A stretch of 64,000 nt of DNA from a virus. A model generated the notes under the pieces. The model saw nothing but the letters and a program-made list of their open reading frames with translations, ran no database searches and was not told the DNA's origin. Positions 4,949-52,720 of this stretch are shown piece after piece; within the stretch, counting starts at the first letter, position 1; every line of letters starts with the position of its first letter. The stretch lies in the IMG/VR virus record IMGVR_UViG_3300035171_000016, positions 64,001 through 128,000 of that record. One strand, 5' to 3'. The position numbers were made by a program, and so were the translations under genes.

Positions 4949-4949
4949 A

Positions 4950-7742: not shown

Positions 7743-7923
7743 ATTGATTAATAAATTCAAAAACTAGGTTATAACAATCTTTGCATAAATGAAATTTAAA
7801 AACACTATCTAAAATAGATAATTTTTCTTCACTAAAAGCACAATAATTAGATGGTGGAGATAGTAAAATTGCCCCCGCTTGTTTTAATTCTTTTCTACAG
7901 CTATAACAAATTGGTTTAATCAT
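7705..7923 (-). CDS. Small Zn-finger-like protein
   Basis: CxxC...HLCxxC. Confidence 0.55.
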   Translation of the reverse strand: MIKPICYSCRKELKQAGAILLSPPSNYCAFSEEKLSILDSVFKFHLCKDCYNLVFEFINQYGNTTKRTIKYK

Positions 7924-18692: not shown

Positions 18693-18832
18693 TTTATTCT
18701 TTTCCATCCTTCTGGTACTGGAACTCCGTCCTGCCAATATTTTTCATATTTAGTTGATATTTCCTGAATAATAATCCAATAAACACAAAATCCATCGCTT
18801 ATTCTTTGTATAAATGGTGTCAATTTATTCAT
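18689..18832 (-). CDS. Small protein (47 aa), not in ORF track
   Basis: MNKLTPFIQRISDGFCVYWIIIQEISTKYEKYWQDGVPVPEGWKRIK; ATGA overlaps at both ends. Confidence 0.55.
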   Translation of the reverse strand: MNKLTPFIQRISDGFCVYWIIIQEISTKYEKYWQDGVPVPEGWKRIK

Positions 18833-19722
18833 TTTCTTACCACTCTTTCGTCTTTAAGATTTTCATCTTCAAAAAACTTGCGATATTGTTTGAATCCTCT
18901 ATAATTACCAATAAAATCGCTAGAATCCATAGCTTGCGCGACGTGTTCGGTGGGGCTAAGATGTCTAGGAATGTTGCCAAATAATCTATCGCATAATTTA
19001 ATATCTGCTTCATAATCATCTTTACCTTCATAGTTAAAATAAGAAACCCTTGCACAGCGAGCAACCGCTATTTTCTTTTTTGCTTCTACAGATTCGTTTT
19101 CTAGCCAATATGAGTCAAAAATCTGTAATTTATTTAATTTTAAAATTAAGCTTTTTAGTTTAGAATCATCTATGCCATTTCCAAACGGGATATGCCATTC
19201 GCCAGTTTTTAATTTTTTAGGCTCTGATTTATTATACTGTTCTAGCATTAAATTAGCTAAAAATTGTAATTCGGGCTGGGCGTCTTTGTGGACTCTTAAA
19301 GCAAAAAAGTTTTCAAATTCGGTAGCCGAAACAATAGCTCTAACATACATAAAATTTTCAATCATTCTATTAACATATTGTTTATGTAGGCCTATAGACA
19401 ACAATTCTTCGGCACTATGTATAGCTCTATCCCTAGCATCCAGCCATGCCAATTTAGCAATTTTCTTAGATTTTTCATCCAATTCAATGTTACTTTGCAT
19501 TCCAGGTTGATTTTTTCCCCAAAACTCTGGCATAGCAGGGTTTGCTTTTATCATTTCTATCATTTTTTCTATTGGAATAGCTCTTGAGCTAGCTACGTTA
19601 CGAGAAAACATCCTATGAGTATTTATCTCTGCTAAAATCCATCTAGGAAACTCTAAAATAAAAGTTGTAAGACGGTTTCCGTGTGTGTTTATAGAATCTT
19701 GGATTATTTCAGATTTTATCAT
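18829..19722 (-). CDS. thyX: Flavin-dependent thymidylate synthase (phage type)
   Basis: PR.ILAE.NTHR.FSRN.ASSRAIP, HKQ..NR, FF.LR.H.DAQPE, ARCARVSY, HLSP.EH. Confidence 0.92.
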   Translation of the reverse strand: MIKSEIIQDSINTHGNRLTTFILEFPRWILAEINTHRMFSRNVASSRAIPIEKMIEMIKANPAMPEFWGKNQPGMQSNIELDEKSKKIAKLAWLDARDRAIHSAEELLSIGLHKQYVNRMIENFMYVRAIVSATEFENFFALRVHKDAQPELQFLANLMLEQYNKSEPKKLKTGEWHIPFGNGIDDSKLKSLILKLNKLQIFDSYWLENESVEAKKKIAVARCARVSYFNYEGKDDYEADIKLCDRLFGNIPRHLSPTEHVAQAMDSSDFIGNYRGFKQYRKFFEDENLKDERVVRK

Positions 19723-20542
19723 ATTTATGTAATTTTTCTACCTTTAGGAATTTTTTAAAATTTTTATATCCTACTCTATCATATACTATGGATGTTATAA
19801 TATCATTTTTATAGCCAGATGTCAACGCTAATTTTCTAATCCCGTCTTCAATAAAGGTCTCACCTGTTATTAAATTAGTTAGTTTCCAATAAAAAGTATT
19901 ACAATTTCTATTGTTTTTTAATTTTTTTGATATTTTTTCGTTTCTCTTATTTTTGTGAGGTTCTACATTATTTTTTTTATCAAAAAATGCTTGATATTTT
20001 TTTAATATTAAACCTTTAAATCTTATAGAATTTACAATTGTACAATGTTTTATTCCTAATTCTTTGGCACAGTTATTTATTGATTCAAATTCCTTTAAAA
20101 AAAAGCCTTCTTTATTATATAGAAATACTTTTTTCTTATTCTTTGCGGATTTAATATGGTTTTTTATACACTCCTTATTTTTTTTAAAGTTTTCTCCGCC
20201 ATCTGTTAAATTGTAACCATACTCTTTTTCGTTTGATTTAAAAAATTTTATCCAATATGTTTCTCGTTTTGCAAGATTTTTTAAAGATACTTCTTCTATT
20301 ATAAGAAAATCAAATTTATCAAAACCATATTTTTTAATGGCTCTATGTATCGCCATCTGACCTCGCCCATTTATTCCATGATATAAATAAGACTTAAATC
20401 TTTTACTTAAATTGGTAGTTAAGCCTACATAAACCTTTCCATTTACTAGATTAGATAATTTATAAATTAAACATTTTTTATAGTATATGCCATAGGTTTT
20501 ATATCTTTTTCGTTCTAAATTTTTTATTTGTAATAATGTCAT
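19709..20542 (-). CDS. GIY-YIG homing endonuclease
   Basis: LIYKL.NL.NGKVYVG.T, RE.YWI, GYNLTDGG. Confidence 0.9.
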   Translation of the reverse strand: MTLLQIKNLERKRYKTYGIYYKKCLIYKLSNLVNGKVYVGLTTNLSKRFKSYLYHGINGRGQMAIHRAIKKYGFDKFDFLIIEEVSLKNLAKRETYWIKFFKSNEKEYGYNLTDGGENFKKNKECIKNHIKSAKNKKKVFLYNKEGFFLKEFESINNCAKELGIKHCTIVNSIRFKGLILKKYQAFFDKKNNVEPHKNKRNEKISKKLKNNRNCNTFYWKLTNLITGETFIEDGIRKLALTSGYKNDIITSIVYDRVGYKNFKKFLKVEKLHKYDKI

Positions 20543-20589: not shown

Positions 20590-21516
20590 CTAATTTTTAT
20601 ACCATTCTAAGATTGAATCTTTTCCCTCGGCCATTAATTGCTCATTAAAGTCTTTATATGGTTTTTTAGGAAGTTTAATTTTTATTTGTTTAGAATCAAA
20701 ATATTTACTTAATCTTTTATATGCTTTATTTGCAGAATTAAGGCCAGCATTATCATTATTTGTAGCAATAATTATTTTAACATCTTGAATTTTAAGAAGA
20801 TAATTAATTATCGGTAGGCCGCATTCAGTTCCAAACATACAGACAGAAGTTCTTATTCCACAGGTCAAAAATGAAATAACATCTGATATTCCTTCAACCA
20901 AAATTATTTCCTTCTTTTCTTTTATGTCTTTATTATTTAAAAATAAAGGATAAACGGTAGATTTTGAACCTCTTAAAATCCATTTCCACTCTTTATTATT
21001 TCCATTAATATCTCTTCCGGCCAACATTGTTATTTGGTTCTTAGAGTTCAATACAGGAAAAACATATTTGCCTTTTAAAATACCCTTGTCAGAAAAAACT
21101 CCGCCTCTGGTTTCTTGTAGAACTTCCTTGCTAATTCCTCTTGATTCCCAATAATCATAAATAGGAACCAAGCTTTTAAAAATGTCGTCGGAAAAAATCT
21201 TAATTTGTTTGATTTTAGGACTAGGCGGCGGCAAAACTATATTATTTTTTTGTAAGTATTTTTCTAAATCTTCGGTAGATAATTGGTTAGTAACCAAAGA
21301 AATTAATCGTTTAATATCAAACTTGCTACCCTCTACGAAATCCAAACAAAGATTTTCTCCCCAATAAATAGCAACGCTTTTTGGGTCTTGTCCAGAACGC
21401 CATAATGCTGCCGTATTAAGATAGTTAGAACTTTCGCTAACAGGATAGCCATGAGTTAATAGGATATTTTTAATAGCATCCTTATTTTTAAAGGAATATT
21501 CTCCAGAATTATACAT
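20590..21516 (-). CDS. DNA primase (TOPRIM)
   Basis: YVFPV, AGRD, ILVEGISD, GT, NNDNAG, KDFNE. Confidence 0.88.
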   Translation of the reverse strand: MYNSGEYSFKNKDAIKNILLTHGYPVSESSNYLNTAALWRSGQDPKSVAIYWGENLCLDFVEGSKFDIKRLISLVTNQLSTEDLEKYLQKNNIVLPPPSPKIKQIKIFSDDIFKSLVPIYDYWESRGISKEVLQETRGGVFSDKGILKGKYVFPVLNSKNQITMLAGRDINGNNKEWKWILRGSKSTVYPLFLNNKDIKEKKEIILVEGISDVISFLTCGIRTSVCMFGTECGLPIINYLLKIQDVKIIIATNNDNAGLNSANKAYKRLSKYFDSKQIKIKLPKKPYKDFNEQLMAEGKDSILEWYKN

Positions 21517-30591: not shown

Positions 30592-31386
30592 ATGTTGACA
30601 TATGTTATTATAGACTATAATCGTCCCTTTGAGAGTGAATTATGTTTAAAATCTATACATAAATACTCTAAATTCGATTATAAAATTGTATATCTCTCAA
30701 ATGGCGGAGAGCAAGACTATGCTATTAACTTTTATAAAAATTCTCTAATAGATAAGTTAATTCTAAGAAAAAAGAACTCTGGATGCGGACTCGCAATGAG
30801 AGAGGCTTTTAATGATTTTGACCTAGAATCCGATTATATTGCTTTAATTCAGTGTGACCAATTCCTTATTAGAGAATACTCTAAAGAAGAGCTAGATTAC
30901 CATATAAGCCTCTTAGAAAGTAAAAGGCACCTTTATATTGATTTGGCCGGAAATCAAGGCAATGGCAATCCTAGCGAAAGAGCGCACCTAATAAATAAAT
31001 ATGAGTACCGTAAGATTCCAAATACAATTGGTGGTCCCGGCCCATATGCTAATGAGGTTTGGACTGAAAAATCGTTTCAAGATTATATAAAAAATAATAA
31101 TTTATCGTTTTTTACTTGCCCACTTTTATTTGCCGATAATGGTAAAATATCTAGAAGAGAATATCCGTGTGGGGGAGAGCTGATTCAGTATACCGATGAA
31201 AAATCTGTTTTTATTACCAAGCCAATTAAAAATAGAGTAGATTTTCCAAACTTACATCTTACCGATAAAGAATGGTCTGATATTATTCAAAATAAATGGA
31301 TTAACGGTACTGTTCCAGAAATGCATAAAAAAGATAGCTTTTTATACTGGAGAGAACCATATACAACTAAAAATACAAATGTCTAA
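30592..31386 (+). CDS. Glycosyltransferase family 2-like
   Basis: VII.YNRP....CL.SI, NGG, N.G.G, QCDQ. Confidence 0.75.
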   Translation: MLTYVIIDYNRPFESELCLKSIHKYSKFDYKIVYLSNGGEQDYAINFYKNSLIDKLILRKKNSGCGLAMREAFNDFDLESDYIALIQCDQFLIREYSKEELDYHISLLESKRHLYIDLAGNQGNGNPSERAHLINKYEYRKIPNTIGGPGPYANEVWTEKSFQDYIKNNNLSFFTCPLLFADNGKISRREYPCGGELIQYTDEKSVFITKPIKNRVDFPNLHLTDKEWSDIIQNKWINGTVPEMHKKDSFLYWREPYTTKNTNV

Positions 31387-32218
31387 AATATTCTTAGCAA
31401 TATCAACCGGCGCAGGAGAAATAGAAAATATTAAAGAGTTAACAGCTAGTTTCTATAATTTTGATGGATTAGCAGTTACATATCATGGCACAAAAGAAGA
31501 CGAGGAATATAAATTATTAGAAAATAGGAAAGGTAATGGATTTGTTGAAATAATTCCTTATTTTGGACACCACGGACATGATTTAAATCATATTTTATTT
31601 AATCCTAAAATAGACCAATCTAGCTGGCTTTTATTAAGAGATAGTAGTGAAAGAGTAAATCCAGACTTTGCCGCCAATATTAAAGATTTTATAAAAATGC
31701 TAGAATATAATGGTATAAATACTGTATATAATTATAGTAAATTATTACTTTTTAAAAGATTTCCGCATCAATATTTTGTTAATAGTCCGCATTGGGGTTT
31801 GGTAGGAGTACAAGATAAGATGATTTCCATAGAAGCCTCTGGCCTTTTTAGCAGAGAAGAAGATTATTGTTATAGTATAAGAAATAGAAATAGAGATAAA
31901 TATCATTTTGTATGGCATTATTTAAAATATTTCTCTAATATTCTTGATAGTAATCATTGTCTTTTAGGAAACGAAAAGAACCAAAACCAATTTCAAATTG
32001 ATGAAGGGAACCGTAGACAATTTAGACGCTATTTAGAAACAAATAATTATCTCCCCTTAACGCCGGAGAAATTTATTTGGATTTGTAATAATAAATTAGA
32101 AGATATTAAATATCTAATAAATAACAATAAAATACTAAATGATGCCTATAGATATTTAGTATTAAAACAAACAGATTTTAATGATGACCACGATAATAAT
32201 AATCTTGTTAAAATATGA
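31379..32218 (+). CDS. Glycosyltransferase family 2-like (divergent)
   Basis: N..L...W.LL.DSSER, PH; resembles the other GT-A ORFs in this window. Confidence 0.55.
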   Translation: MSKIFLAISTGAGEIENIKELTASFYNFDGLAVTYHGTKEDEEYKLLENRKGNGFVEIIPYFGHHGHDLNHILFNPKIDQSSWLLLRDSSERVNPDFAANIKDFIKMLEYNGINTVYNYSKLLLFKRFPHQYFVNSPHWGLVGVQDKMISIEASGLFSREEDYCYSIRNRNRDKYHFVWHYLKYFSNILDSNHCLLGNEKNQNQFQIDEGNRRQFRRYLETNNYLPLTPEKFIWICNNKLEDIKYLINNNKILNDAYRYLVLKQTDFNDDHDNNNLVKI

Positions 32219-32472
32219 ATAAAAAAAACAAAACACTAATCAAAATAGTTGAAAAAGACTTAATGAAAGATGAAGTCTGGGGATATGCGTATGTAAATAA
32301 GAATCTAATTGAATTAGAACAATTAATGAAAGGTAGAAGAAGATTTTCTGTACTTATTCACGAATTAGTTCATAAAGCGTTACCAGAGTTAACCGAAAAA
32401 GAAACAACAAGAGTTGAGAAAATTTTATTCAGAAACTTGTGGGCGCAAAATTATAGGAAAGTTGACCAATGA
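32215..32472 (+). CDS. Minimal zincin-like protein
   Basis: WGYA....I.L.........VLIHELVH....E. Confidence 0.65.
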   Translation: MNKKNKTLIKIVEKDLMKDEVWGYAYVNKNLIELEQLMKGRRRFSVLIHELVHKALPELTEKETTRVEKILFRNLWAQNYRKVDQ

Positions 32473-33188
32473 TAAATTTAATAAATATTAAAACTTTAAA
32501 AACTGGCGAAGGTTTTGATGTATATATAGGTAGATATAATAAAGCTGGAGAATTTCCCGAATCAATATGGAAAAATCCTTATATAATTGGCGTTCATGGC
32601 GATAGAGAGTTTTGTATAGAAAAATATAAATTATATTTAAATACAAGGCCAGATTTGCTTAGAAGATTAGGAGATTTAAAAAACAAAACTTTAGGGTGTT
32701 GGTGTGTCCCTGAGAAATGTCATGGAGAAATTTTAATAAAACTATCAGAAAGTAAATATATCAGGAATTGGTTTAGTAATATGCTGCCATTTGACGAGCC
32801 AATGATTTATCAAGATATTATGTTTAAAACTCCTGAAAATTTTTATCAAGCTATGAAGCTTCCTAAGCATGATATTGCACTAAGAAAAGAGATAGCTGAT
32901 ATGCTTCCATTTGAAGCTAAAAAAGCAATTAGAGATAAATCTAAGTATAAATGGAGAGAAGACTGGTCACGAGAAAAGGCTCTTAAAATAATGAAATATA
33001 CTTTAGATTTTAAATTTAAAAAAGGAACTTCTTGGTATAATAAACTAGTAATGACCGAAAACTGGGAAATAACAGAATGGAATAACTGGGGAGATTTATA
33101 TTGGGGCAAAGATATTAACACCGGAAAAGGAGAAAATAATCTAGGAAAAATTTTGATGGAAATTAGGAGTAATTATAAAAATGATTAA
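32469..33188 (+). CDS. DUF4326-NADAR fusion protein
   Basis: N-half DVYIGR..S.WKNPY..GDR...LGCWC.P..CHG; C-half FSN, ENFYQAMK, KF, E.N.WGD.YWG...G.N.LGKILMEIR. Confidence 0.85.
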   Translation: MINLINIKTLKTGEGFDVYIGRYNKAGEFPESIWKNPYIIGVHGDREFCIEKYKLYLNTRPDLLRRLGDLKNKTLGCWCVPEKCHGEILIKLSESKYIRNWFSNMLPFDEPMIYQDIMFKTPENFYQAMKLPKHDIALRKEIADMLPFEAKKAIRDKSKYKWREDWSREKALKIMKYTLDFKFKKGTSWYNKLVMTENWEITEWNNWGDLYWGKDINTGKGENNLGKILMEIRSNYKND

Positions 33189-34805: not shown

Positions 34806-35564
34806 ATGAATAAAAATATTTTACCAATATTTTCTTCTCATTTTTCTTTAGGAAAGTCAACTCTTACTTTGGAAAAACCAGAGCCGATAGAGGATAATAA
34901 GCCTATTTCAATTTTTTCTATAGCTAAAGAAAACAAGTTAACTGAAATTTATTTAGTTGAAAATAATTTTAGTGGTTTTATTCAGGCTTATAAAACGTCC
35001 AAAGATAATAAAATTAATCTTAAATTCGGATTAAAATTAGTAATTTGTAATGATTTAGCCGACAAATCCGAAGCCTCCTTTAAAACAGAGTCAAAGGTTA
35101 TTATATGGATGAAAAATTCTGATGCTTATAAAGATTTAATTCGTATATATTCAAAGGCCGCGACTGATGGATTTTATTATTTACCAAGATTAGATTGGAA
35201 ACATTTACAAGAAATGTTTACTAATAATTTAATACTTTCTATTCCTAGTTATGGTTCATTCTTACATAATAATCTTTTAAAGGGGTACGAGTGTGTTCCA
35301 GATTTCGGAAAATTAAAATATAATATAATGTATAGTAGGATGTCGCTTCCATTTGACTTTCTGATTGAGGAAAACCATAAGAACTATGCTAAAAATAATA
35401 ATATTGAGATATTAGAAACACATCCTATTTATTTTTATAGCCTAAAACAGTTAGATTCATATATTTGCTTTAAGGCAATCCATAAAAGAGGTCAGTTTTC
35501 TGCTCCTAAAATTGATAATCACGGTTCTTCCGATTTTTGTTGGGAAAATTATAAAAATAAATAG
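34806..35564 (+). CDS. Stand-alone PHP domain of DNA Pol III alpha
   Basis: SHFSLGKS, E..FSGF..AY......I.LKFG, KN..AYKDLI.I.S.A..GFYY.PRLD. Confidence 0.85.
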   Translation: MNKNILPIFSSHFSLGKSTLTLEKPEPIEDNKPISIFSIAKENKLTEIYLVENNFSGFIQAYKTSKDNKINLKFGLKLVICNDLADKSEASFKTESKVIIWMKNSDAYKDLIRIYSKAATDGFYYLPRLDWKHLQEMFTNNLILSIPSYGSFLHNNLLKGYECVPDFGKLKYNIMYSRMSLPFDFLIEENHKNYAKNNNIEILETHPIYFYSLKQLDSYICFKAIHKRGQFSAPKIDNHGSSDFCWENYKNK

Positions 35565-35650
35565 TTAGAAACAAAAAAAATATTTAATTATTTATATAAA
35601 AATATAAATTTCTCATTAAAAAGAAAACTTAATGAATTTAAAAAAATAAT

Positions 35651-36298
35651 ATGCTAGATTCCAAACTACTAAAATACAATATATCAAATTATAAATTTCT
35701 CTGTTTCGACGTTGAGAGCGAGGGATTAAATCTTCTAAAATCAAGGCCATGGGAAATCGCATGGACTGTTTATCACGGCTATAATAAGATAGAAAGCCAT
35801 CAACACTTCGTAAAATGGCACGAGCTTAATGTTTCTATTGGTGCGGCTAAGGCCACAGGATTTAACCCGGCCATAATTGAAGAAAAAGGTGAAAATCCTA
35901 AAGATGTTATTGACTTATTTGATAATTATATATACAATAAGGAATACAAATTAATTACGGCTAATGGGCTAGGCTTTGATACCTATATTCATAATTTATC
36001 AAGAAAACTATTGGGATATAAAACTGATTATTCCTATTTAGATAGGATGTACGATATTTTATCAATGGGTAGGGCCTATAGACTAGGAATAAAACCGCCG
36101 GAAGAAAAAAAAGATTTTTTAGCATGGCAATATCGCCTTTTGCAGATTTTTCAGAAAGGGCTAAAATGTAAAAACGCAGAGCTAGCTAGAGAGTTCGGTT
36201 TTGAAGTTGACGAATCAAAACTACATATTGGAGCATATGATTGCGAATTAACCGCATTTTCATTCTTTAATTTAATTAAAAAAATAGATATACAATAA
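35651..36298 (+). CDS. DEDDh 3'-5' exonuclease (DnaQ-like)
   Basis: FDVESEGL, NG.GFD, YD, LH.GAYD. Confidence 0.88.
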   Translation: MLDSKLLKYNISNYKFLCFDVESEGLNLLKSRPWEIAWTVYHGYNKIESHQHFVKWHELNVSIGAAKATGFNPAIIEEKGENPKDVIDLFDNYIYNKEYKLITANGLGFDTYIHNLSRKLLGYKTDYSYLDRMYDILSMGRAYRLGIKPPEEKKDFLAWQYRLLQIFQKGLKCKNAELAREFGFEVDESKLHIGAYDCELTAFSFFNLIKKIDIQ

Positions 36299-36306
36299 TT
36301 AATATA

Positions 36307-38856
36307 ATGTTTACAGAGCAATTTCAAAAATACGACTTTCCATTATTAGGACTAGTAAGATTACCTCAAGTAAAAATTACTGACGCCGAAAAGAATTCTA
36401 TTGGCATTAACTTAAATTGTTCAAATTATGAGTTTTTAAGAGAACTAACAAAACAAAACTTCCAAAAAAATGAGCATAAACTGTCTAATCCAGATGCATA
36501 TCAAAAAAGAGCGCAGTATGAATTAGAGATATTTGAGGAATTAGGATTTACTGATTACGTTTTATTGGTATGGAAAGTTATCAATAAATTAAAAGAGCTA
36601 GGCGGTTACAGAGACGCTGGGCGCGGTAGCTGTGTAGGCTCTTTTGTTTTTGCTTTGATTGGTATTACCGGAGTATTAGATGTTATTGATAAAGGTTTAA
36701 TTTTTGAGCGTTTTATTTCTAGAGTAAGAAGTAAAAAAGAAATTATTGATGGAACTACATATCTTCATGGAGACCTTCTTTGCGATGCAGATTTAAATCT
36801 CGGAGGGTGCCGACAAGATATTATTGATTGGCTTAAACAGGAATATCAGGGTAAAATCTGTAAAATTGCAGCGTTTTCAACCCTTACTTCTAAAATTTTA
36901 ATTAAGGATATATATAAAACATATGACGAGGTAAACGAGGATGAGGCCAAGAGAGTTGCCGACATGATTGAGAAACAATTTGGTATAGTTAACGATATTG
37001 AAGAAACTATTAAAGAAAATAAAGAATTTAAAAAATGGTCAGAAGCACATCCTAAAACATTTGAAATTTGTTTACAACTAAGAGATTTATTGAGACAAAA
37101 AACTTCTCATGCTTCTGGATATTTTATATCATATTATGATTTAGACGGATTTGTCCCTGTTGAGCTAAATAAAGATAAGGAATTATCTCTAGCTTACGAA
37201 ATGAATGACGCCTCTCAGTTAGGAACAAAATTAGACTTATTAGGTCTAACACAATGCGAAATTCTTACTGAATTTTTCAAAACTATTCCAGAAAAACCAG
37301 ACGATATTGAATTAGACACAAATCCAATTGTTTACGAAGCATTACAAAAAGATTTTTTGCCATATGGATTATATCAAATAAGTGCCGATTGTGCAAAAAG
37401 AGTTACAAATAAAGTAAGACCAAAAAATATTTCAGAATTAAGTGATATTAACGCAATAGCTAGACCCGGCGCATTAGATTATCTAGATTCATATGTAGAT
37501 GGAACAGTAAAATCTCCTCATAAAATATTTGATGATATAGTTAAAGAAACTAGAGGCCTGTTTTTGTACCAAGAGCAATTAATGAAGGCTATTGTGGCAA
37601 TCGGATTTACGTTAGACGACGCTGAAATAGTTAGAAAAATTGTTGGCAAAAAACAAAAGAAAGAGTTTCCAAAATGGGAGCAAAAAATTAAAGATAAAAT
37701 TAAAGAAAATAATCTTCCATCAGAAGTTTATGAAATTGTTTGGAAGGTTTTAAACGATAGCTCTGGATATTCTTTTAATAAAAGTCATAGCTTAGGCGTG
37801 TCATATCTCGGAGCATTAACTGTTTGGGCAAAATATAAATATCCATTACAATTCTATACAGCCTGCCTAAATTCAGCTAAAAATCAGCCCGCTCCCACAG
37901 ACGAAATAGCGGCTATTGAAAACGAATTAAAATATTTTAATATTAAATTATTACCACCGGATATTATTAAGTCTAAAAATGAATTTACTATAGAAGATGG
38001 AAATATAAGATTTTCATTACAGTCTATTAAAGGAATTGCTAATAAAACATTAGAAAAAATTCAAAACTTTAAACACGAATATTCTTCTAAATTTGATATA
38101 TTTAATGCCGCCAACGAAGCAAAGTTAGGTATTGGAGTTCTATCGGCTTTAATACAATCTGGCTGTTTAAGTAGCTATTGCAAGGATATAACTCGCTCAC
38201 AGCTAGTTAAAGAGGCTCAGTTATATAATTTATTAACAGACAAGGAAAAGAAAAGAGTTATTGAAATTGGAGAACAATTTAATTATGATTTAGTTGGAAT
38301 TATTAAATATTTATCTTCTCCACAAAACGGCTCAGAAAAATCTTTTATTAAGAATAGTAGAATGGAAACAATAAGAAAGAAATTTAAAGGATATTACGAA
38401 ATTTATAAACAAAATAGCAAAAATGAAAAGCTTGCTCAAAATTTTTATGAATTTTCCTTGCTAGGATTTACTTTTTCTGATACATTATATAGTATATTAA
38501 AGGAAGAATATAAAGATGTAATGCCAATAAATCAAGTAATTGGTGAGCTAGATAATACTAAAGTTCAGGTATGCGGACGTATTAGTGATATTCGCTCTGG
38601 GACTTCAAAAAATAAAAATAAATATATTAAAGCTAAACTTGAAGATGGTAGCGGAAATAGTATTAATATAATGATAATGGAAAGAAATTTTAGTCTCAAT
38701 GAAGAGCTAAACGATGGTAAAAAACTAGAAGATGGAGATATTATCATGGCAGAAGGAACTAAAAAGCCAGATATTATCTTCTGTGATAAGATAGTATCCC
38801 AAAAAATTAAAATATATCAAAAACTAAGCGAATTAAAAAATAGCGAAAAAATATAA
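36307..38856 (+). CDS. dnaE: DNA polymerase III alpha catalytic core (no PHP)
   Basis: GRGSCVGS, FERF, DADL, HASG, KLDLLGL, RPG, YQEQ, YSFNKSH, C-terminal OB fold. Confidence 0.95.
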   Translation: MFTEQFQKYDFPLLGLVRLPQVKITDAEKNSIGINLNCSNYEFLRELTKQNFQKNEHKLSNPDAYQKRAQYELEIFEELGFTDYVLLVWKVINKLKELGGYRDAGRGSCVGSFVFALIGITGVLDVIDKGLIFERFISRVRSKKEIIDGTTYLHGDLLCDADLNLGGCRQDIIDWLKQEYQGKICKIAAFSTLTSKILIKDIYKTYDEVNEDEAKRVADMIEKQFGIVNDIEETIKENKEFKKWSEAHPKTFEICLQLRDLLRQKTSHASGYFISYYDLDGFVPVELNKDKELSLAYEMNDASQLGTKLDLLGLTQCEILTEFFKTIPEKPDDIELDTNPIVYEALQKDFLPYGLYQISADCAKRVTNKVRPKNISELSDINAIARPGALDYLDSYVDGTVKSPHKIFDDIVKETRGLFLYQEQLMKAIVAIGFTLDDAEIVRKIVGKKQKKEFPKWEQKIKDKIKENNLPSEVYEIVWKVLNDSSGYSFNKSHSLGVSYLGALTVWAKYKYPLQFYTACLNSAKNQPAPTDEIAAIENELKYFNIKLLPPDIIKSKNEFTIEDGNIRFSLQSIKGIANKTLEKIQNFKHEYSSKFDIFNAANEAKLGIGVLSALIQSGCLSSYCKDITRSQLVKEAQLYNLLTDKEKKRVIEIGEQFNYDLVGIIKYLSSPQNGSEKSFIKNSRMETIRKKFKGYYEIYKQNSKNEKLAQNFYEFSLLGFTFSDTLYSILKEEYKDVMPINQVIGELDNTKVQVCGRISDIRSGTSKNKNKYIKAKLEDGSGNSINIMIMERNFSLNEELNDGKKLEDGDIIMAEGTKKPDIIFCDKIVSQKIKIYQKLSELKNSEKI

Positions 38857-38862
38857 ACTATT

Positions 38863-39120
38863 ATGAATAAAAAACCACTATTATCAACTTTAGGTTCTAA
38901 TGAAAATGGAGACTGGAAACAAGAATGGAAAGATATGCCAGAATTTATTCAGGAAAAGCAAAGACCATATAAAATGCTTATAGTAAGATTTGAAACAAAA
39001 GAAGATTATGAAGATTTTCAAAAAAGAATTGAACAAAAACTTACGGATAAGACTAAAAGTATCTGGCACCCAGAATTAGAGCGCGGCGAGCATTCTGATA
39101 AAAGATATGTAGACGAATAA
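38863..39120 (+). CDS. Small acidic protein of the type found beside TAGT genes
   Basis: W.DMPEF.Q......LIVRF...ED...F...I.Q..T.KTKSIW.P. Confidence 0.65.
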   Translation: MNKKPLLSTLGSNENGDWKQEWKDMPEFIQEKQRPYKMLIVRFETKEDYEDFQKRIEQKLTDKTKSIWHPELERGEHSDKRYVDE

Positions 39121-39136
39121 TAAATATTAATTATTT

Positions 39137-39886
39137 ATGTTTACAGTATATATACCCTCTCTTAAAAGGTTTGATATAAAAAATGGTACTGCTAAACTTA
39201 TGCAGGACAATAATATTAACTATAAATTAGTTGTAGAGCCACATGAATTTATAAGTTATTGTAATAATTTTGGAGAAAATAATGTTATTAGTATAGACCG
39301 CTCTGGATTAGGAGAGGCATATGTTAGAAATTGGATTAAAAAATATTCAAAATCAATTAAGGAACAGTGGCATTGGCAATTAGATGATGATATTAGTAGT
39401 TTTTGTTATAGAAGATTTCAACAAAAAAGACAGGCTATTTCTGCCAAAAATGCTTTATTAGATGTAGAAATAGAAACTATTAAATATAACAATGTTTCAG
39501 AGTCGGGTATTAATTTTGATTCTTGGAGGCCGGGGAATATATCTATAATTATTAATAGGCCGGTATATAGATGTGTTTTAATTAAAAATGATAATAATAT
39601 AGAATGGCGAGAATTTGTTCCATTTTGCGACTGGGACTATTCTATGCAACTATTAAATAACGGATTTTCAATATTAAAATTTGACCATATTAGATTAAAA
39701 TCTCCTAAACCCGGAACCTTTGCTGGTGGATTAGACTATTTATATGCAAAAAATAATATTAGAAATAATATACAAAGTCAGTTAATTAAGGAGTGGCCAG
39801 AGTGCTATTTAAGCGAAAGTAAATCCGGTAAATGGATTAATGCTAGAAAATTTTTTAAACTACATAATAACCCACTAAATAAATGA
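39137..39886 (+). CDS. TET-associated glycosyltransferase (TAGT/GREB1-like) 1
   Basis: VYIPS.KR, VVEP.E..Y, RNWI, HWQLDDDI, D.DYS.Q.L..G, GG. Confidence 0.75.
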   Translation: MFTVYIPSLKRFDIKNGTAKLMQDNNINYKLVVEPHEFISYCNNFGENNVISIDRSGLGEAYVRNWIKKYSKSIKEQWHWQLDDDISSFCYRRFQQKRQAISAKNALLDVEIETIKYNNVSESGINFDSWRPGNISIIINRPVYRCVLIKNDNNIEWREFVPFCDWDYSMQLLNNGFSILKFDHIRLKSPKPGTFAGGLDYLYAKNNIRNNIQSQLIKEWPECYLSESKSGKWINARKFFKLHNNPLNK

Positions 39887-40782
39887 ATCCAAACTATCCA
39901 TTATATATTGTATCTAAAAGTCGCTGGGAAAGCCGATTAACAAGCAAGGCGTTAGAGAGAATGGATGTTCCCTATTATATAGTAGTAGAGGCTCACCAAT
40001 ATAATGAATATGCATCCGTTATAGATAAGAATAAGATATTAATTTTACCACAAGAATTTTTAGATAACTACGATACTTGCGATGAACTCGGTAATACTAA
40101 AAGCAAGGGTCCCGGAGCAGCTAGAAATTTTGCATGGGAACACTCTATTAAAAATGGATTTAAGAGACATTGGGTACTAGATGATAATATTCCATTGTTT
40201 TATAGATTAAATAGAAATACTAGAATAATCGTTAATACCGGCTCAATTTTTAAAGCTGCCGAAGATTTTGTAGATAGATATGAAAACTTATTGGTTTCTG
40301 GATTTAATTATAGATTCTTTTGCAAACAAACAGAGCCTCTTCCGCCTTATTATCTTAATACCAGAGTTTATTCGTGTTTATTAATTCAAAATGATGCTCC
40401 CTATAGATGGAGAGGAAGATATAATGAAGATACCGATTTATCTTTAAGAGTTTTAAAAGACGGACATTGTACATTACAATTTAATGCCTTTCTTCAGGGT
40501 AAGGTGGCTACTCAAACAGTAGCGGGTGGAAATACTGAGGAATTTTATAAAAACGAAGGTACTATCAATAAATCCAAAATGCAAGTTGATTTACATCCAG
40601 ATGTATCAAAGCTTGTTTGGAAATTCGGTAGGTGGCATCATCATGTAGATTATAGCTCATTTCAAAAAAATAATAAATTAATAAAAAAGAAAAATTTAAA
40701 TATAGAAGATAAAATAAATAATTATGGAATGAAATTGGTAGATATTAAAGATAAAAACATTGACAAAACTAACATATCCTGA
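39883..40782 (+). CDS. TET-associated glycosyltransferase (TAGT/GREB1-like) 2
   Basis: YP.YIVSK.R, GPG.ARNF.W.HS, HWVLDDNI, NTR.YSC.LI, WRGRYNEDTDLSL, K..TQ...GGNT. Confidence 0.85.
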   Translation: MNPNYPLYIVSKSRWESRLTSKALERMDVPYYIVVEAHQYNEYASVIDKNKILILPQEFLDNYDTCDELGNTKSKGPGAARNFAWEHSIKNGFKRHWVLDDNIPLFYRLNRNTRIIVNTGSIFKAAEDFVDRYENLLVSGFNYRFFCKQTEPLPPYYLNTRVYSCLLIQNDAPYRWRGRYNEDTDLSLRVLKDGHCTLQFNAFLQGKVATQTVAGGNTEEFYKNEGTINKSKMQVDLHPDVSKLVWKFGRWHHHVDYSSFQKNNKLIKKKNLNIEDKINNYGMKLVDIKDKNIDKTNIS

Positions 40783-40788
40783 TAATAT
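40760..40788 (+). promoter_or_regulatory. Sigma70-type promoter
   Basis: TTGACA-17-TAATAT, 6 nt before ATG 40795. Confidence 0.75.
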
Positions 40789-40794
40789 ATAAAT

Positions 40795-41229
40795 ATGCCT
40801 AAACTAACTATTGCCGAAGTACAAGAAGCCCTAGCTCGCTCTAATGTAGAACCAAAACAGCAAGAGTCGGTTCTTAATCATTTACAAGAGGTTATTAAAG
40901 AGCTAGAAGACGAAAAAGAGCAACAAAATCCTACAGTTAAAGTAAAAAACGAGTTTGGAGTAATTATTCTTGATGAAAATGGAGATATTAAGGTAGATAC
41001 TGCTGCGCTTATTTATCAGATAAAGGTAGGAGAAGACCACGGTACGGTATTCCAGCGCATTAGAGACGCCGTAAAAGAATTTAATCTAACTAAAAAAGGC
41101 CTAAAGCATCCTGTCAAATCGGTAACAGAAGCCTTTCAAGCAATCGCGCCTAAGATTTTTAAGAACCAAGGTATCATTCGTAAAACTAAAGAAATTACCA
41201 GAGTATTAAAAACTAATAATAAAATTTAA
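40795..41229 (+). CDS. Hypothetical protein
   Basis: 144-aa ORF with promoter. Confidence 0.75.
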   Translation: MPKLTIAEVQEALARSNVEPKQQESVLNHLQEVIKELEDEKEQQNPTVKVKNEFGVIILDENGDIKVDTAALIYQIKVGEDHGTVFQRIRDAVKEFNLTKKGLKHPVKSVTEAFQAIAPKIFKNQGIIRKTKEITRVLKTNNKI

Positions 41230-41230
41230 C

Positions 41231-41259
41231 TTGACTTTTCTATAAAATTAAATTAATAT
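41231..41259 (+). promoter_or_regulatory. Sigma70-type promoter
   Basis: TTGACT-17-TAATAT, 6 nt before ATG 41266. Confidence 0.75.
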
Positions 41260-41265
41260 AAATAT

Positions 41266-41457
41266 ATGCCTAAAAATACAAATAAAACAATCCGTTATTT
41301 CGGTGAAATCGTTATGCGCCCTAATGGTCGCTATCAAGTAAAACATATCCAACGCCTTATCGGTGTCAACCAACATCGCCGCAAGTGGGTTGATGTTAGT
41401 GGCTCTGAATTTGCTAAGGAACTAAATAAAGCAAATGTTTTAGCCCCTAAACACTAA
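41266..41457 (+). CDS. Small basic hypothetical protein
   Basis: ORF with promoter. Confidence 0.65.
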   Translation: MPKNTNKTIRYFGEIVMRPNGRYQVKHIQRLIGVNQHRRKWVDVSGSEFAKELNKANVLAPKH

Positions 41458-41466
41458 TATATAATT

Positions 41467-42033
41467 ATGCCTAGCCAATTTTTTTCACCTAATGCCAAAA
41501 TTTCAGGAGGAGCGGCTTTCTTCTCCTTTAATTCTAAGGATGGCTCAGTTTATATCAAATTACTTAAACAGATAGCTAATAATCCAAATAAGAAAGGTAA
41601 TTTTGACGGAGCGAATCCAGTAAATATTAAACTTTCTCAAGATGAGGCCGCTGATTTTGTCCGCGCCGTTAGAACCAGCGGAGAATCTAAATTCTTTCAT
41701 AAGTTCGAGGCCAATACAACCTCTGGCTCTTTAAAGTTTTATACTATTCCAGCTAAGGATAACTTTCCTGCTCGTAGCGGTTTTGGTTTATCTGTGAAGA
41801 AATCCGCAGATGGAAAGGAAACAGAAATTAAGGTAGGATTTACTCTCGGTTCTGCCGAAAGACTATCTATTTTCTTAACAAATGCTTTAACGCATATTAT
41901 GGACGCTGAATACTCACAGGACATTAAGGACGCAAAGGAGTATGCCGAAAAGAAAAAGAATGCCGCATCGGTATCTGTTCCAGACGAAGCTAAAGAAGAT
42001 GTTAAAGAAACAGAAGAAGAAATCGAATTTTAA
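41467..42033 (+). CDS. Possible ssDNA-binding protein
   Basis: Two beta-rich/helix units with aromatics; acidic tail ending EEEIEF. Confidence 0.5.
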   Translation: MPSQFFSPNAKISGGAAFFSFNSKDGSVYIKLLKQIANNPNKKGNFDGANPVNIKLSQDEAADFVRAVRTSGESKFFHKFEANTTSGSLKFYTIPAKDNFPARSGFGLSVKKSADGKETEIKVGFTLGSAERLSIFLTNALTHIMDAEYSQDIKDAKEYAEKKKNAASVSVPDEAKEDVKETEEEIEF

Positions 42034-47549: not shown

Positions 47550-48314
47550 TTATACGCTAGGCATCTTTTTTAGCCTCTCTATAAAAGAGAATACTAGGTC
47601 TTTAGGAAGGTCTTCTATAGTTTTATATTCAGGCTTGAAGGTATTTTCGGCCTTCATTTTATCTTCTAGATGCTTAAACAAAACACCCTTAGCCTTCATA
47701 ATATCACAAAGAAGCTTAACCTGTCTTTGAGGAACTATCGCCGGTCTAGATACCTGTTGCTCCGCTTCTCCGGTAGACGCCCCTAATTCCTCGCGTGATA
47801 CAATATTAATATTTAAACAGTTTCTTACGGCTCGGCAAAAAGCTCTATTAGTGGCAATTTCTAGCAAGTATTTGGTTGCAAAATTACTAGTATTCCCTAA
47901 ATGAGCGCAAGCGTTATCTTGAAACAATAGGCTAATATTTTCAGATTCGTAATTAGGAATTAATTCTAATTCACAATTAACAGCTACATATTCTGGATTA
48001 GCCTCTTTAATATTATATTTTACGGATTTAAAACCTCTTAACTTAGCTAGATATTTAATACCGCCTAATAGAATAATTAAATCGGTATCCTTTACATTAT
48101 CTTTAATAATATCTATTTCTGAATATGGTTTTCCGTATTGTTTTTCTATTCTTTCCCTATGTTTTGGGTCGTTATTAATATAGAGGTATTGAATGGGAAC
48201 CATACTCCTATAATCTATAAGACCATCTTGAGTAAATTTATATTCAATTCCTTTTATTAAGCCGTTTTCGTCGCGCTCAACTTTTTTTAAAATATTTGGT
48301 TTAATTTCTTCCAT
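47550..48314 (-). CDS. Putative ssDNA annealing protein (Rad52/RecT-like)
   Basis: L.GI..LA..RG, A.A......, IA.NRA..RAVR..LNI...EE. Confidence 0.55.
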   Translation of the reverse strand: MEEIKPNILKKVERDENGLIKGIEYKFTQDGLIDYRSMVPIQYLYINNDPKHRERIEKQYGKPYSEIDIIKDNVKDTDLIILLGGIKYLAKLRGFKSVKYNIKEANPEYVAVNCELELIPNYESENISLLFQDNACAHLGNTSNFATKYLLEIATNRAFCRAVRNCLNINIVSREELGASTGEAEQQVSRPAIVPQRQVKLLCDIMKAKGVLFKHLEDKMKAENTFKPEYKTIEDLPKDLVFSFIERLKKMPSV

Positions 48315-48720: not shown

Positions 48721-49911
48721 TTAGACCTTATCAGTGTCAAGCTTTTCAAGAAAATACATGAATTCGCTTTCTTCCCACAATAATTCTAATTTTTCATTAA
48801 TAATTTTAATTGGTTCATTTATTGTTGGATTAATATTTCTTCCAATAATATAATCTTGATAACTAGCAAAAAACTTTCCGCCGCCAAGGATTAATTTACT
48901 AGATTTATAATATAAATTATCAATATTAATATTTTTTAATTTATCGGGCATTTCTTTTGATATAACCACAATTGGAGAATAATCTAAATAATCTAATTTA
49001 ATATTATTTAATTTTTCTTGATTTAATTCTGATATTAATTGATATGGAATTTTTAAAGATATTAATTGTTTAATAAAATCTGGATTATTATTTTCGGCTA
49101 TACAATAAACAATACCAGAAATATTTTTCTTATATTTTTGTAGAATATTTAGCGGAATTTCTTTTGTTGTAATAATTTGACAAGGATTTAAGGCTAATTG
49201 ATTTTGCAGTATAGCCAAATTAAAATTCCAATCAATTCTCATTACTAGATTTTGAGCATTTAGTTTTTTTACGTCTATTACGTCTGTAACAGCGGATTCT
49301 AAAAATTTATTATTAAATAAATCTCCAATATATAAGGTATTATATGGATAATTAAAATTATCGTTTAATAACTTAATGACTGATTTAGCAATTTGCTCTG
49401 GTTTAATTTCGTTAATTTGTTTATTTGGTCCCTCGTCTAACGAAAACATTGGATTTTTAGATTTTCTATCTGGTTCTAAAATAATTTGTTTGGATTTGTC
49501 ACCAAAATAAGGACGAACACAATTAGAAAAATTATTAGAGATTAGGTCAACTAATGGTATATTATAATGTCCAGCTAAATGCGCTCCAACTGAATCTGTA
49601 CATAAAACTAGCTTTGATTTGCTGATAATATATTGGAATTGGCCCCAATTAGTGCTTCCTTGTAGATGCCTACAATATTTTAGCGGCCTTTCGTCTTTTG
49701 CGCCTAGCTGTAAAATTTCTATATTATTTTTTTGTAAGTAAGGATAGATTAAATCTAAAACCTCTTCCCAGTAACTATAATTTTTAGATGGTTTGCTCCA
49801 AGGTTGGATAACTATATAGTCATTAGGCAACCCTGGGTAGAATTTTTCACAAGTATGAATCTTGTCAATTTTTTGTCCTGACGTTAAACTATAATTTTGC
49901 ATTATATTCAT
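48721..49911 (-). CDS. GT9 (heptosyltransferase-like) C-terminal domain plus unknown domain
   Basis: YIVIQP....KNY..W..V, QLG...E, L.G.T.....II....L....DS...HLA.....P.V.L. Confidence 0.8.
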   Translation of the reverse strand: MNIMQNYSLTSGQKIDKIHTCEKFYPGLPNDYIVIQPWSKPSKNYSYWEEVLDLIYPYLQKNNIEILQLGAKDERPLKYCRHLQGSTNWGQFQYIISKSKLVLCTDSVGAHLAGHYNIPLVDLISNNFSNCVRPYFGDKSKQIILEPDRKSKNPMFSLDEGPNKQINEIKPEQIAKSVIKLLNDNFNYPYNTLYIGDLFNNKFLESAVTDVIDVKKLNAQNLVMRIDWNFNLAILQNQLALNPCQIITTKEIPLNILQKYKKNISGIVYCIAENNNPDFIKQLISLKIPYQLISELNQEKLNNIKLDYLDYSPIVVISKEMPDKLKNINIDNLYYKSSKLILGGGKFFASYQDYIIGRNINPTINEPIKIINEKLELLWEESEFMYFLEKLDTDKV

Positions 49912-50773: not shown

Positions 50774-52720
50774 TTATACGGGGACAAAAACCGAATTATT
50801 TGATAAATAATTAAGAAATTTTTGGGTTCCGGCAGCAACAAAACAATATCCATTAAACATACCCTTTCTCTCTCCCTGACCAATACAATATATTTCAGAT
50901 TGCATAAAATCTTGATAAGGCAATACTTTATCGAGATACGGATTTAAGTCAAATAACTCCGAAAACTCTGGTTTAGTTGCCAAATATAAATTCCATTCTT
51001 CGCTAGGATATGATTCTCTAAAAGATTTAAGAGTTGCGGATACATATAAACAATCCCCTGCGGACTCTGGACATACAATTAAAAATTGTTTTTTGCCATT
51101 ATTTATTAACAAAGACTCAAAAGGAATTTGCGGCTGTACTTTTTGATTATGTTCCATTGCCGCCCTACGGAATGAATTTACTAGACTTTCTCTCAATTTT
51201 CTTTTTTCTCCATCTTGAGATAGAAATTTCATCCAATGCTGTTTACCACTATCATTTTCCGGCAAATTCATATTCAGAATTTCTTTATAACAGTGGTCAA
51301 TAAACTCAATATCGGATTGCTTATCTTCTATTCTAGCATTAATATTTTTCAGTTCTTTCTTTCTATTAAAATAAGAGTCCCAATCAATCTTTTTGCAAGA
51401 ATCAAAAAAAGATTCTAATTTGCCAGCAATAACATTGGCGTCAAAGTTTTCAACCGTCCATTTTCTTGCTCTTTCTGTAATATCTTTCTTTTTTTCTGGA
51501 GAAAGATTATAAACAAGCTCATAAAATTCAGTAATTGATTTAATATCAGGCACGAATTTTTTAAAACCAGTTCCAACCTCTCTAGTATAGGTACCCCTTA
51601 GAGAAAAAACGAAATCATTTTTGACATAATCTTCTCCACAAGAATATGGGAAAGAGGCAAATGGTATTCCAGCCAGCATTGATTCTTGGCTTGTTAATTC
51701 GCTTCCACCACTATTAGGACAGCTACAAGAGCCATCGGCCAAATTATAAATTTTATTTAAATCTTTTTCGTTGATGGTACTAGTAATTCCTGCGCTAATT
51801 CTACTTTTCTTTGATTTACAGGTAGGACAGTCCAAATCTTCTCCGTCATGCGGGGCTACTTCCCATTCTTGACAATTTTTACAAAAATATGTGCATAAAA
51901 CATCTTCCTTGTTAAGTTTAAGTTCATCTCTAATTCTATCAATTGGCCAGCCGTTAGGTTCGGTAAAAGAAGTATGTAATAATAATCTTACTTTCTTATC
52001 AGGATTTTTTAGTTTAAATTCTTTTAAACCCTCTAGAAGAGCCCATGCTTGTTTTCTTAATTGGTTTCTAAATACATAAATAATAACTTTTTCATCATCA
52101 TTAATATTAAATTTACGTCTTAATTCTAATCTTTCTTTATTTGGTAGAGGATAGAAATCGTCAGTATTGAAAGCTGGAAATAGTGTTTTACAATGTCCAT
52201 ATTTTTCAATATTTTCTTCTTTTAATGCTCTTTCTGCAAAGCTAGACCAAAAATACATATTAGGACAATTTTCTGCCCATGTTTTAAAATTAGGTAAAAT
52301 AGGCTCAGAATCAGCGGTTGTCCATTGAATAAAATTTTGTTTAATATGTTTATACCAGTCTTGACTTATATAAGATTCTTCACTAGAACTCCAAATATCA
52401 TCTGCGTGAATAACGCAATCTAACCTGTTTTCTGTAACAAATTTTTCCACTACATTGTTTCCATAACTAACCCACCTTCTATATCCTTCATCCTGATTAA
52501 ATCTGTTCTGGTCAAAATTAACCATTGTACCAAAGCTTTTCCAAGGATATTTTTGAAAACTGGGGTCATTATCTGAAAATCCTTGATTTAGAAAGTATAT
52601 ATCATATTTATTTGTCTTATAAATAATTGGTAGCCAAGCTTTTACGCATCTAGCTAAACCTGTTTTTAAAGAGATATTATTGGTAATTATACCAATTTTA
52701 AGTTTGTCTTCCATGTACAT
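50774..52720 (-). CDS. GT4 glycosyltransferase with Zn-ribbon insert, DUF4214-like domain and GT9 N-terminal domain
   Basis: TGLAR, FRNQLRK, CKNC..CPTC, LN.IYN..D, GG.EL...E....G; FI...Y..IL....D.G..HW; ESAGD...LKS....YP...NPY.DKV. Confidence 0.85.
   Translation of the reverse strand: MYMEDKLKIGIITNNISLKTGLARCVKAWLPIIYKTNKYDIYFLNQGFSDNDPSFQKYPWKSFGTMVNFDQNRFNQDEGYRRWVSYGNNVVEKFVTENRLDCVIHADDIWSSSEESYISQDWYKHIKQNFIQWTTADSEPILPNFKTWAENCPNMYFWSSFAERALKEENIEKYGHCKTLFPAFNTDDFYPLPNKERLELRRKFNINDDEKVIIYVFRNQLRKQAWALLEGLKEFKLKNPDKKVRLLLHTSFTEPNGWPIDRIRDELKLNKEDVLCTYFCKNCQEWEVAPHDGEDLDCPTCKSKKSRISAGITSTINEKDLNKIYNLADGSCSCPNSGGSELTSQESMLAGIPFASFPYSCGEDYVKNDFVFSLRGTYTREVGTGFKKFVPDIKSITEFYELVYNLSPEKKKDITERARKWTVENFDANVIAGKLESFFDSCKKIDWDSYFNRKKELKNINARIEDKQSDIEFIDHCYKEILNMNLPENDSGKQHWMKFLSQDGEKRKLRESLVNSFRRAAMEHNQKVQPQIPFESLLINNGKKQFLIVCPESAGDCLYVSATLKSFRESYPSEEWNLYLATKPEFSELFDLNPYLDKVLPYQDFMQSEIYCIGQGERKGMFNGYCFVAAGTQKFLNYLSNNSVFVPV

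Follow-up and report, generated by a model that had tools for sequence, protein, structure and literature searches.

Can glycosyltransferases of a family tied to DNA hypermodification operate in a phage that encodes neither of the enzyme types known to prepare their acceptor base? The question is raised by three plus-strand open reading frames (ORFs) at positions 38863-40782 of the stretch analyzed here, hereafter the window, which spans 64,000 nucleotides (bases 64001-128000) of a 147,760-bp uncultured phage record in IMG/VR (IMGVR_UViG_3300035171_000016; 95% complete according to CheckV; ~30% GC). Lying just after the polymerase gene of a split DnaE-type replicase, they encode an acidic protein of 85 residues, termed S85 (38863-39120), and two glycosyltransferases of the TET-associated glycosyltransferase (TAGT) family, TAGT-A (39137-39886, 249 residues) and TAGT-B (39883-40782, 299 residues). 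To date, the only role recognized for enzymes of this family has been in the final steps of hydroxymethyl-pyrimidine hypermodification. The cassette described below is a TET/ThyS-independent variant of TAGT systems, and it contains an adaptor module, S85, which has not previously been described.

Two enzymes of the TAGT family

An earlier inspection of the letters and their translations, referred to here as the sequence-only reading, had described a tight run of three genes behind dnaE. The ORFs lie exactly where it placed them, all on the plus strand, with 6 nucleotides between the polymerase and S85 genes, a 16-nucleotide gap between S85 and TAGT-A, and a 4-nucleotide overlap between TAGT-A and TAGT-B; no terminator-like sites were found between any of these genes. 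Against the Pfam TAGT family (PF20691; gathering score 27.5 bits), TAGT-A scored 86.5 bits (E 3e-24) and TAGT-B 161 bits (E 4.8e-47), and both also matched phrog_842 (E 2.9e-57 for TAGT-B). The profile search suggested at the outset thus placed both proteins in the TAGT family rather than with the polysaccharide or protein glycosyltransferases. They share 25% identity (E 9e-16) and were the only TAGT genes recovered in a six-frame search of the whole record.

The motifs by which the two enzymes had been recognized (IPS.KR/IVSK.R, HW.LDD and (E)D.D.S) are present in both, as YIPSLKR, HWQLDDD and CDWDYS in TAGT-A and as YIVSKSR, HWVLDDN and NEDTDLS in TAGT-B. Each enzyme accordingly holds the catalytic set of an N-terminal R, a DxD/DDD and a C-terminal (E)D.D, and the R, H-W, D-D and later D are invariant or nearly so in both clades. 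In TAGT-A a C replaces the E of (E)D.D, at a position which varies within its clade, while R11, D83/D84 and D165 are conserved there.

Structural comparison, likewise proposed by the sequence-only reading, pointed in the same direction. An AlphaFold (AF2) model of TAGT-A is a confident GT-A fold (predicted local distance difference test, pLDDT, 94.8; predicted template modeling score, pTM, 0.91), as is that of a naturally occurring S85-TAGT-B fusion, which shares 66% identity with TAGT-B (pLDDT 89.2, pTM 0.89). Alignment to GT-A enzymes with VIA-align gave Z scores of 10-13.4, and the best Foldseek matches of the models were TAGT-labelled phage proteins; those of TAGT-A included a T-even-type beta-glucosyl-HMC-alpha-glucosyltransferase (TMq 0.73, E 6.7e-12). 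The fold search with the fusion model returned no DNA-enzyme match, an outcome which bears neither way on the acceptor, and searches of PDB sequences with TAGT-A, TAGT-B and a ThyX-like protein discussed below yielded nothing usable.

The two clades differ in character. TAGT-B belongs to a very widespread and highly conserved one, comprising at least 8000 protein clusters, with 320 viral relatives (the best 80 at 59-70% identity) and ~80 residues invariant across 42 homologs. Cultured phages of Aeromonas, Vibrio, Tenacibaculum and Pectobacterium carry homologs, and others, at 40-70% identity, come from bacterial genome records of many phyla, mostly contigs of metagenome-assembled genomes, assigned to the Proteobacteria, Bacteroidota, Acidobacteriota, Verrucomicrobiota, Planctomycetota, Bacilli, Cyanobacteria and others. 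TAGT-A falls in a looser, divergent clade (852 representative relatives, the best 42% identical), and its third-ranked match is the C-terminal half of a 579-residue tandem TAGT. A scan of viral contigs with exact peptides found no close relatives of TAGT-A or of the polymerase; relatives were reached instead through alignment and through the ThyX-like gene. The enzymes have an isoelectric point (pI) of ~9 (TAGT-B clade median 9.0) and Lys-rich C-terminal tails.

S85, a detachable module of TAGT enzymes

S85 matched no family in Pfam, PHROG or NCBIfam, and is recognized by the conserved motif EW.[GD]MPEF.Q ... VRF ... ED...F ... GQ.LT.KTKSIW.P ... RYVDE. Its partnership with TAGT enzymes is obligate. 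Homologs were present at 78 of the 80 best TAGT-B loci from viral contigs, directly upstream of TAGT-B and with overlapping stop and start codons, while the reverse search, made with an S85 alignment, found a TAGT no more than 1.5 kb away in 77 of 78 loci, the sole exception being cut by a contig end. The sequence-only reading had called S85 a small partner of the glycosyltransferases. That it accompanies them was upheld; that it is a separate protein was not, and it is, judging by the fusions, a detachable N-terminal module of the enzyme. S85 forms the N-terminus of TAGT-B fusions in one metagenomic locus (L029), in Aeromonas phage Aeh1 (gp093; Aeh1p093) and in both tandem copies of Vibrio phage Kuja (gp32/33), is fused to TAGT-A in another locus (L130), and is joined to a TAGT in many further metagenomic proteins.

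Very often S85 instead constitutes the C-terminal ~70 residues of a protein of ~210 residues. Pfam assigned ParB_N (PF02195) to the S85-bearing proteins of two loci (L048 and L130), and one Atlas cluster carries ParB_N on 86% of its members. Most copies in bacterial genomes consist of TAGT-B beside such a ~210-residue S85-bearing protein, or of triple-length fusions. The S85 of the present phage, only 85 residues long, has no ParB_N, nor was this domain among the families listed for the phage in whole-genome Pfam tallies, which give 25 of 40 families for the left third of the genome. In E. coli genomes blastn detected no TAGT, its matches being confined to the ParB/Srx part (YnaK-like).

Modelled alone, S85 is poorly predicted (Atlas pLDDT 0.46). 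Inside the natural TAGT-B fusion it is modelled confidently (block pLDDT 86-96, pTM 0.89), mostly as an extended arm and a helix. It is acidic (pI ~5.3), whereas both enzyme clades are basic, with a median pI of ~9. S85 may fold only against the catalytic domain of a TAGT, where it would act as an N-terminal arm and docking piece, and in many other phages it would link the enzyme to a ParB-type N-terminal domain.

Recurrence and mobility of the triad

That the three genes form a cassette was confirmed: S85, TAGT-A and TAGT-B recur together across many viral contigs, variously ordered and fused. The order seen here, S85-TAGT-A-TAGT-B, was found in about a dozen loci (L101, L102, L126, L128, L140, L142, L150, L157-159, L175 and L176) and the order TAGT-B-S85-TAGT-A in some fifteen, while single polypeptides of ~578 residues unite TAGT-B with TAGT-A as their C-terminal half. 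The suggestion that two paralogs add sugars in sequence fits these observations, in that the paralogs belong to different clades which also occur as one tandem-fused polypeptide, and the pairing would suit two enzymes acting successively on one product. Vibrio phage Kuja, a cultured member of the Ackermannviridae (NC_048827.1, 30264-32952; L092), has two tandem S85-TAGT fusions of 446 and 452 residues, 63% identical and both annotated as beta-glucosyl-HMC-alpha-glucosyltransferase; it also holds one full-length ThyA-type gene (39141-39983).

At 234 other TAGT loci, essentially no protein of the present phage but S85 and the TAGTs recurred, the exceptions being dCMP deaminase (nine large-phage loci) and a few single matches. 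Recurrent neighbours elsewhere comprised four terminase families, PolB (18 loci) and ERF/YqaJ recombinases, as well as NAD-dependent sugar epimerase/dehydratases (15 loci) and UDP-glucose dehydrogenases (11 loci).

In the present genome the cassette follows a replicase split into a PHP subunit (34806-35564), an exonuclease (35651-36298) and a polymerase (36307-38856), all on the plus strand (34806-38856), which matched the Pfam families PHP, DNA_pol3_alpha, finger, HHH_6 and OB as well as phrog_192 and phrog_405. Two relatives whose polymerases are 43-44% identical, G076 (172 kb, 100% complete) and G082 (146 kb, 92% complete), keep the order of PHP, exonuclease and polymerase genes but carry no TAGT, and in G076 the polymerase is followed directly by a homolog of window positions 41467-42033. 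The block at 38863-41457 is thus an insertion here, and genome comparison shows the cassette to be accessory and, on this evidence, mobile. The remainder of the block (40795-41457, plus strand) consists of two ORFs of 144 and 63 residues (ORF144 and ORF63) with no family matches. They were rejected as cassette members, as no homologs stand beside a TAGT in 234 other loci. G076 (L211, 1-14000) also has homologs of three glycosyltransferase-like genes of the window (50774-52720, 48721-49911 and 47550-48314), placed immediately after the polymerase gene and the 41467-42033 homolog; block order therefore differs between relatives.

Absence of acceptor-generating enzymes

The sequence-only reading had seen no TET/JBP and no hydroxymethyl-generating enzyme in the window, an absence which was borne out across the 95%-complete genome. 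Six-frame searches of the whole record with Tet_JBP and with Thymidylat_synt (PF00303) found nothing even at E<=1, while the controls were positive in both cases (Mycobacterium phage Cooper gp2 was detected by the TET search at E 4e-8). Among the families listed by the Pfam tallies of all ORFs of at least 95 residues there was likewise no TET/JBP or ThyA-type family, no T4-type glycosyltransferase (GT-B alpha-glucosyltransferase) and no hydroxymethylase.

The same holds for other carriers of the cassette, of which two sets (25 and 50 records, including 14 at least 90% complete) were searched. TET was found in 0/25 and 0/50 records, and a ThyA-type gene in 0/50, with only a 56-position C-terminal fragment in the set of 25. 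The expectation that the clade normally sits with a TET/JBP or a hydroxymethylase is therefore wrong for these clades, and since none of the 75 carriers has TET, and a ThyA-type gene is represented by that one fragment, the missing precursor enzyme is their rule and not a quirk of this phage. When eight complete carrier genomes (28-44 kb) and the present phage were compared all-against-all with phmmer, only TAGT and S85 were broadly common, and a Pfam tally of the eight added only ParB_N, epimerases and single methyltransferases. As nothing else is common to complete carriers, no phage-encoded precursor enzyme appears to be needed.

Candidate partners from nucleotide metabolism fared no better. 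dCMP deaminase was rejected because it lies near triads in only nine loci, all in large phages with general nucleotide-metabolism genes; canonical ThyX was rejected because the 7 of 50 records that have it are all fragments of large phages, and none of the eight complete small carriers does. The window itself encodes a very divergent ThyX-like protein (18829-19719, minus strand, 296 residues), from which the sequence-only reading had concluded that thymidylate comes from ThyX. This is unsafe, for the protein scores 50.9 bits against TIGR02170 over profile positions 61-206 only, below the equivalog cut-off of 87.9 bits, and is also unlinked to TAGT across genomes. It matches PF02511 at positions 59-190 (E 3e-13), lacks the N-terminal ~60 profile positions, bears a C-terminal extension of ~130 residues, and shows an HR...S remnant of the RHR-x7-S motif (THR..S in place of RHR..S); no solved ThyX was found with it by phmmer (E<=0.01). 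Homologs occur in eight viral records at 49-61% identity and in a ninth at 32%. As an obligate partner the gene was rejected, since TAGT is present in just one of the nine records that have it and complete relatives have it without TAGT.

The acceptor

The reading that we tentatively favour, at somewhat short of an even chance, is that the cassette directs a self-contained, TET-independent, two-step glycosylation of DNA, carried out after replication at limited sites. A mobile three-component glycosyltransferase system, inserted behind replicase genes, would have TAGT-B transfer a first sugar from a nucleotide-sugar donor to an acceptor present in every host and phage, and TAGT-A add a second sugar to the first, as the TAGT of T2 and T6 does on glucosyl-hydroxymethylcytosine (glucosyl-hmC). 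The universality of the acceptor is suggested by the span of many bacterial phyla by enzymes that are 40-70% identical and share ~80 invariant residues. Phage DNA would be the likeliest such acceptor, modified without a hydroxymethyl pyrimidine made by TET/JBP or ThyA, in a working mode closer to that of an orphan methyltransferase or Mu Mom than to the wholesale base replacement of T4.

Several observations favour DNA. By analogy, every characterized viral or kinetoplastid member of the family acts on DNA: the TAGT of T2 and T6 completes gentiobiose by adding its second glucose to a sugar already on DNA (PMC13390438, PMC13216743), and DNA is likewise the substrate of phage GT-A enzymes and base-J glucosyltransferase (JGT) (bioRxiv 10.1101/2023.12.21.572611). 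ParB-like partners activate phage T-dioxygenases and have been tied experimentally to phage DNA base modification (PMC13229309), and the ParB_N fusions found elsewhere may, by the same token, hint at a DNA-directed role. The replicase (DnaE here, PolB elsewhere) and terminase neighbourhoods also speak in favour, and basic enzymes with Lys-rich C-terminal tails fit a polyanionic acceptor.

Weighing against this reading, firstly, is the phage's own sequence composition. GATC is absent from the whole genome (and so from window positions 1-64000), against 309 (Markov) or 420 (composition) expected; CCWGG occurs 3 times against 56 expected; and 29 of 64 six-base palindromes are missing, where composition predicts 1.1. 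GATATC, for which ~50 occurrences are expected genome-wide, is likewise absent. With similar avoidance in seven of the eight other complete carriers (13-34 of 64 six-base palindromes absent), the DNA of carriers is evidently exposed to restriction enzymes. Avoidance this extreme excludes genome-wide shielding of the T4 type, so that if DNA is the acceptor, its modification must be sparse or site-specific. There is, moreover, a chemical difficulty: unmodified DNA offers no evident acceptor hydroxyl, and we know of no Leloir glycosyltransferase that glycosylates a canonical DNA base. Pyle et al. rate glycosyltransferases without a neighbouring 5mYOX or ThyS as 'less likely' to act on DNA (bioRxiv 10.1101/2023.12.21.572611).

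A rival reading is that the acceptor is not DNA but a conserved host or phage protein, a virion protein, RNA or tRNA, or a nucleotide-type small molecule, glycosylated for host takeover or counter-defence, with S85 and ParB_N as targeting or nucleotide-binding rather than DNA-loading modules. We consider this unlikely, albeit a contender to be taken seriously. An acceptor-generating enzyme was found in none of 76 records, and site avoidance shows the DNA to be unshielded. The ParB/Srx fold occurs in non-DNA enzymes as well. GREB1, a eukaryotic member of this Pfam family, transfers O-GlcNAc to protein (PMC7968844). The solved structures matched by our models are generic GT-A enzymes with protein, polysaccharide or teichoic-acid substrates (GT2 synthases, GnT-I and the prophage enzyme TarP). 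The phage also carries several other glycosyltransferase genes and gmd, so that other glycan targets exist in the same cell. Yet the many host phyla in which enzymes 40-70% identical are found do not have conserved surface polymers in common, strictly lytic T4-like phages also carry the module, its genes sit with replication and packaging genes and not with structural or lysis genes, and all characterized viral and kinetoplastid members act on DNA. As to the sugar, the gmd gene lies 30 kb from the cassette among GT2 and GT4 genes, which leaves the proposed link to a Gmd-derived GDP-deoxysugar unsupported.

One variant of the DNA reading, distinctly unlikely in our estimation, is that TAGT-B with S85 is an orphan DNA glycosyltransferase which places a sugar directly on a canonical DNA component (the backbone, or a normal base at a ring position or exocyclic amine) without any hydroxymethyl precursor, TAGT-A extending it to a disaccharide. 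The classical scheme would be rescued if an enzyme invisible to profiles supplied a hydroxymethyl (or hydroxy) pyrimidine for the TAGT pair to glycosylate, the candidate here being the ThyX-like protein, fed by two dCMP deaminases. In favour of this are the divergence of that protein in score, truncated profile match and C-terminal extension, and one 9-kb contig which contains both a ThyX-like homolog and a TAGT triad; 5-hydroxymethyl-dUMP has been trapped as an intermediate of the ThyX reaction. Krischvirus SAP, furthermore, contains glucosyl-hmC without recognizable synthase genes (PMC13390438). We nevertheless judge this scheme improbable: three of the records with the ThyX-like gene are 92-100% complete and have no TAGT, the complete small carriers, which share nothing but S85 and TAGT, lack ThyX of any kind, and replacement at the nucleotide level would shield all T or C, in conflict with total GATC avoidance. 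More improbable still is that the enzymes act on hydroxymethylated or glycosylated DNA of co-infecting phages or of the host, or that the cassette is a recent passenger without a role here. Its accessory and mobile nature, its absence from relatives and its frequency in bacterial genome records, many with prophage-type neighbours, would agree with these readings, but both glycosyltransferase genes are intact and tightly coupled to the replicase operon, thousands of homologs are under strong purifying selection, and nothing points to a foreign-DNA target.

Comparison with known systems

One of the nearest known parallels to the cassette is the beta-glucosyl-HMC-alpha-glucosyltransferase of T2 and T6, which shares the PF20691 family and GT-A fold and lends its name to phrog_842. 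It is a second-step enzyme, adding sugar to a DNA-borne sugar, and the same role is proposed for TAGT-A. It is, however, only 14-16% identical and has no reported S85-type module, and the T-even pathway includes gp42 (for hmC) and a GT-B alpha-glucosyltransferase (for the first glucose), neither of which was found in this phage. A tblastn search with TAGT-B did not reach T6 at E 1e-5.

Phage GT-A enzymes associated with 5mYOX (TET) and C5-methyltransferases, together with JGT (Burke 2021; Pyle 2023/2024), likewise combine a GT-A fold with R...DDD...(E)D motifs. Tandem or sequential glycosyltransferases are common among them, and their genes, as here, repeatedly lie near those for ParB-like proteins, polymerases, terminases and sugar epimerases. 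They act on 5hmC or 5hmU supplied by an adjacent dioxygenase, whereas no TET/JBP accompanies the present cassette in 76 records. Pyle et al. found ~65% of glycosyltransferase contigs to have no 5mYOX or ThyS neighbour and left them unexplained (bioRxiv 10.1101/2023.12.21.572611); lacking such neighbours, the present cassette appears to belong to this set.

Other parallels are looser. ParB-dependent phage T-dioxygenases (PMC13229309) pair a catalytic DNA-modifying subunit with an adjacent small ParB-fold partner, reminiscent of the S85-bearing ParB_N proteins of cassette relatives; they are dioxygenases and not glycosyltransferases, and the S85 in the window has no ParB_N. Orphan phage DNA methyltransferases and Mu Mom are similarly mobile, accessory and self-sufficient, lie near packaging or replication genes and in some cases carry a ParB_N fusion. 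Their modification of canonical bases affects only part of the available sites, which is compatible with continued avoidance of restriction sites. With no homology and another chemistry, they would resemble the cassette in working mode only. GREB1, an animal protein, demonstrates that the fold accepts protein, but it is a eukaryotic multidomain protein without S85, ParB or viral context.

Other genes of the genome

A GIY-YIG homing endonuclease of the group-I-intron type (TIGR01453, E 5e-24; 19709-20539, minus strand) sits between the ThyX-like gene and a DnaG-type primase gene (20590-21513). An unusual set of nucleotide-metabolism genes lies at window positions 3950-4981, 7920-8417 and 15724-16260 and at whole-genome positions 31073-31558 and 60434-60958 (all minus strand), and comprises an IMPDH/GMP-reductase-type enzyme (E 1e-59), two dCMP-deaminase-type proteins and two nucleoside 2-deoxyribosyltransferase-like proteins (PF15891). 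The set also includes a DUF5662 protein beside a Methyltransf_24 gene; we found no mention of DUF5662 in the literature. A further ORF (32469-33188, plus strand) encodes a 239-residue protein that combines DUF4326 (E 2e-19) with NADAR (E 3e-14). As domains of the latter type are known to remove ADP-ribose attached to guanine in DNA, the gene may serve in counter-defence.

Implications

Homologs in Aeromonas phages Aeh1, 65, phiAS5 and Ah1, Tenacibaculum phage PTm1, Vibrio phage Kuja and Nonlabens phage P12024L bear the RefSeq name beta-glucosyl-HMC-alpha-glucosyltransferase. Since Aeh1 and 65 are recorded as lacking genes 42 and 56, and with them the hmC pathway (PMC2993671), this name is doubtful and probably represents over-transfer from T-even phages.

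Glycosyltransferase contigs that were previously unexplained gain a concrete anatomy from these results, namely an obligate S85 adaptor, two clades which pair, permute and fuse, and frequent ParB-type fusions. The carriers include cultured phages (Aeromonas phages Aeh1 and 65, Vibrio phage Kuja and Tenacibaculum phage PTm1) and a chromosomal copy in Pantoea stewartii, and the availability of cultured carriers makes the acceptor of these orphan TAGTs directly testable. Should direct glycosylation of a canonical DNA component prove true, it would add a new class to the known DNA modifications, one that thousands of phages and the genome records of bacteria from many phyla would share. Either outcome is of consequence: the answer would be a new DNA chemistry or the correction of a wrong 'DNA-modification' annotation for thousands of genes.

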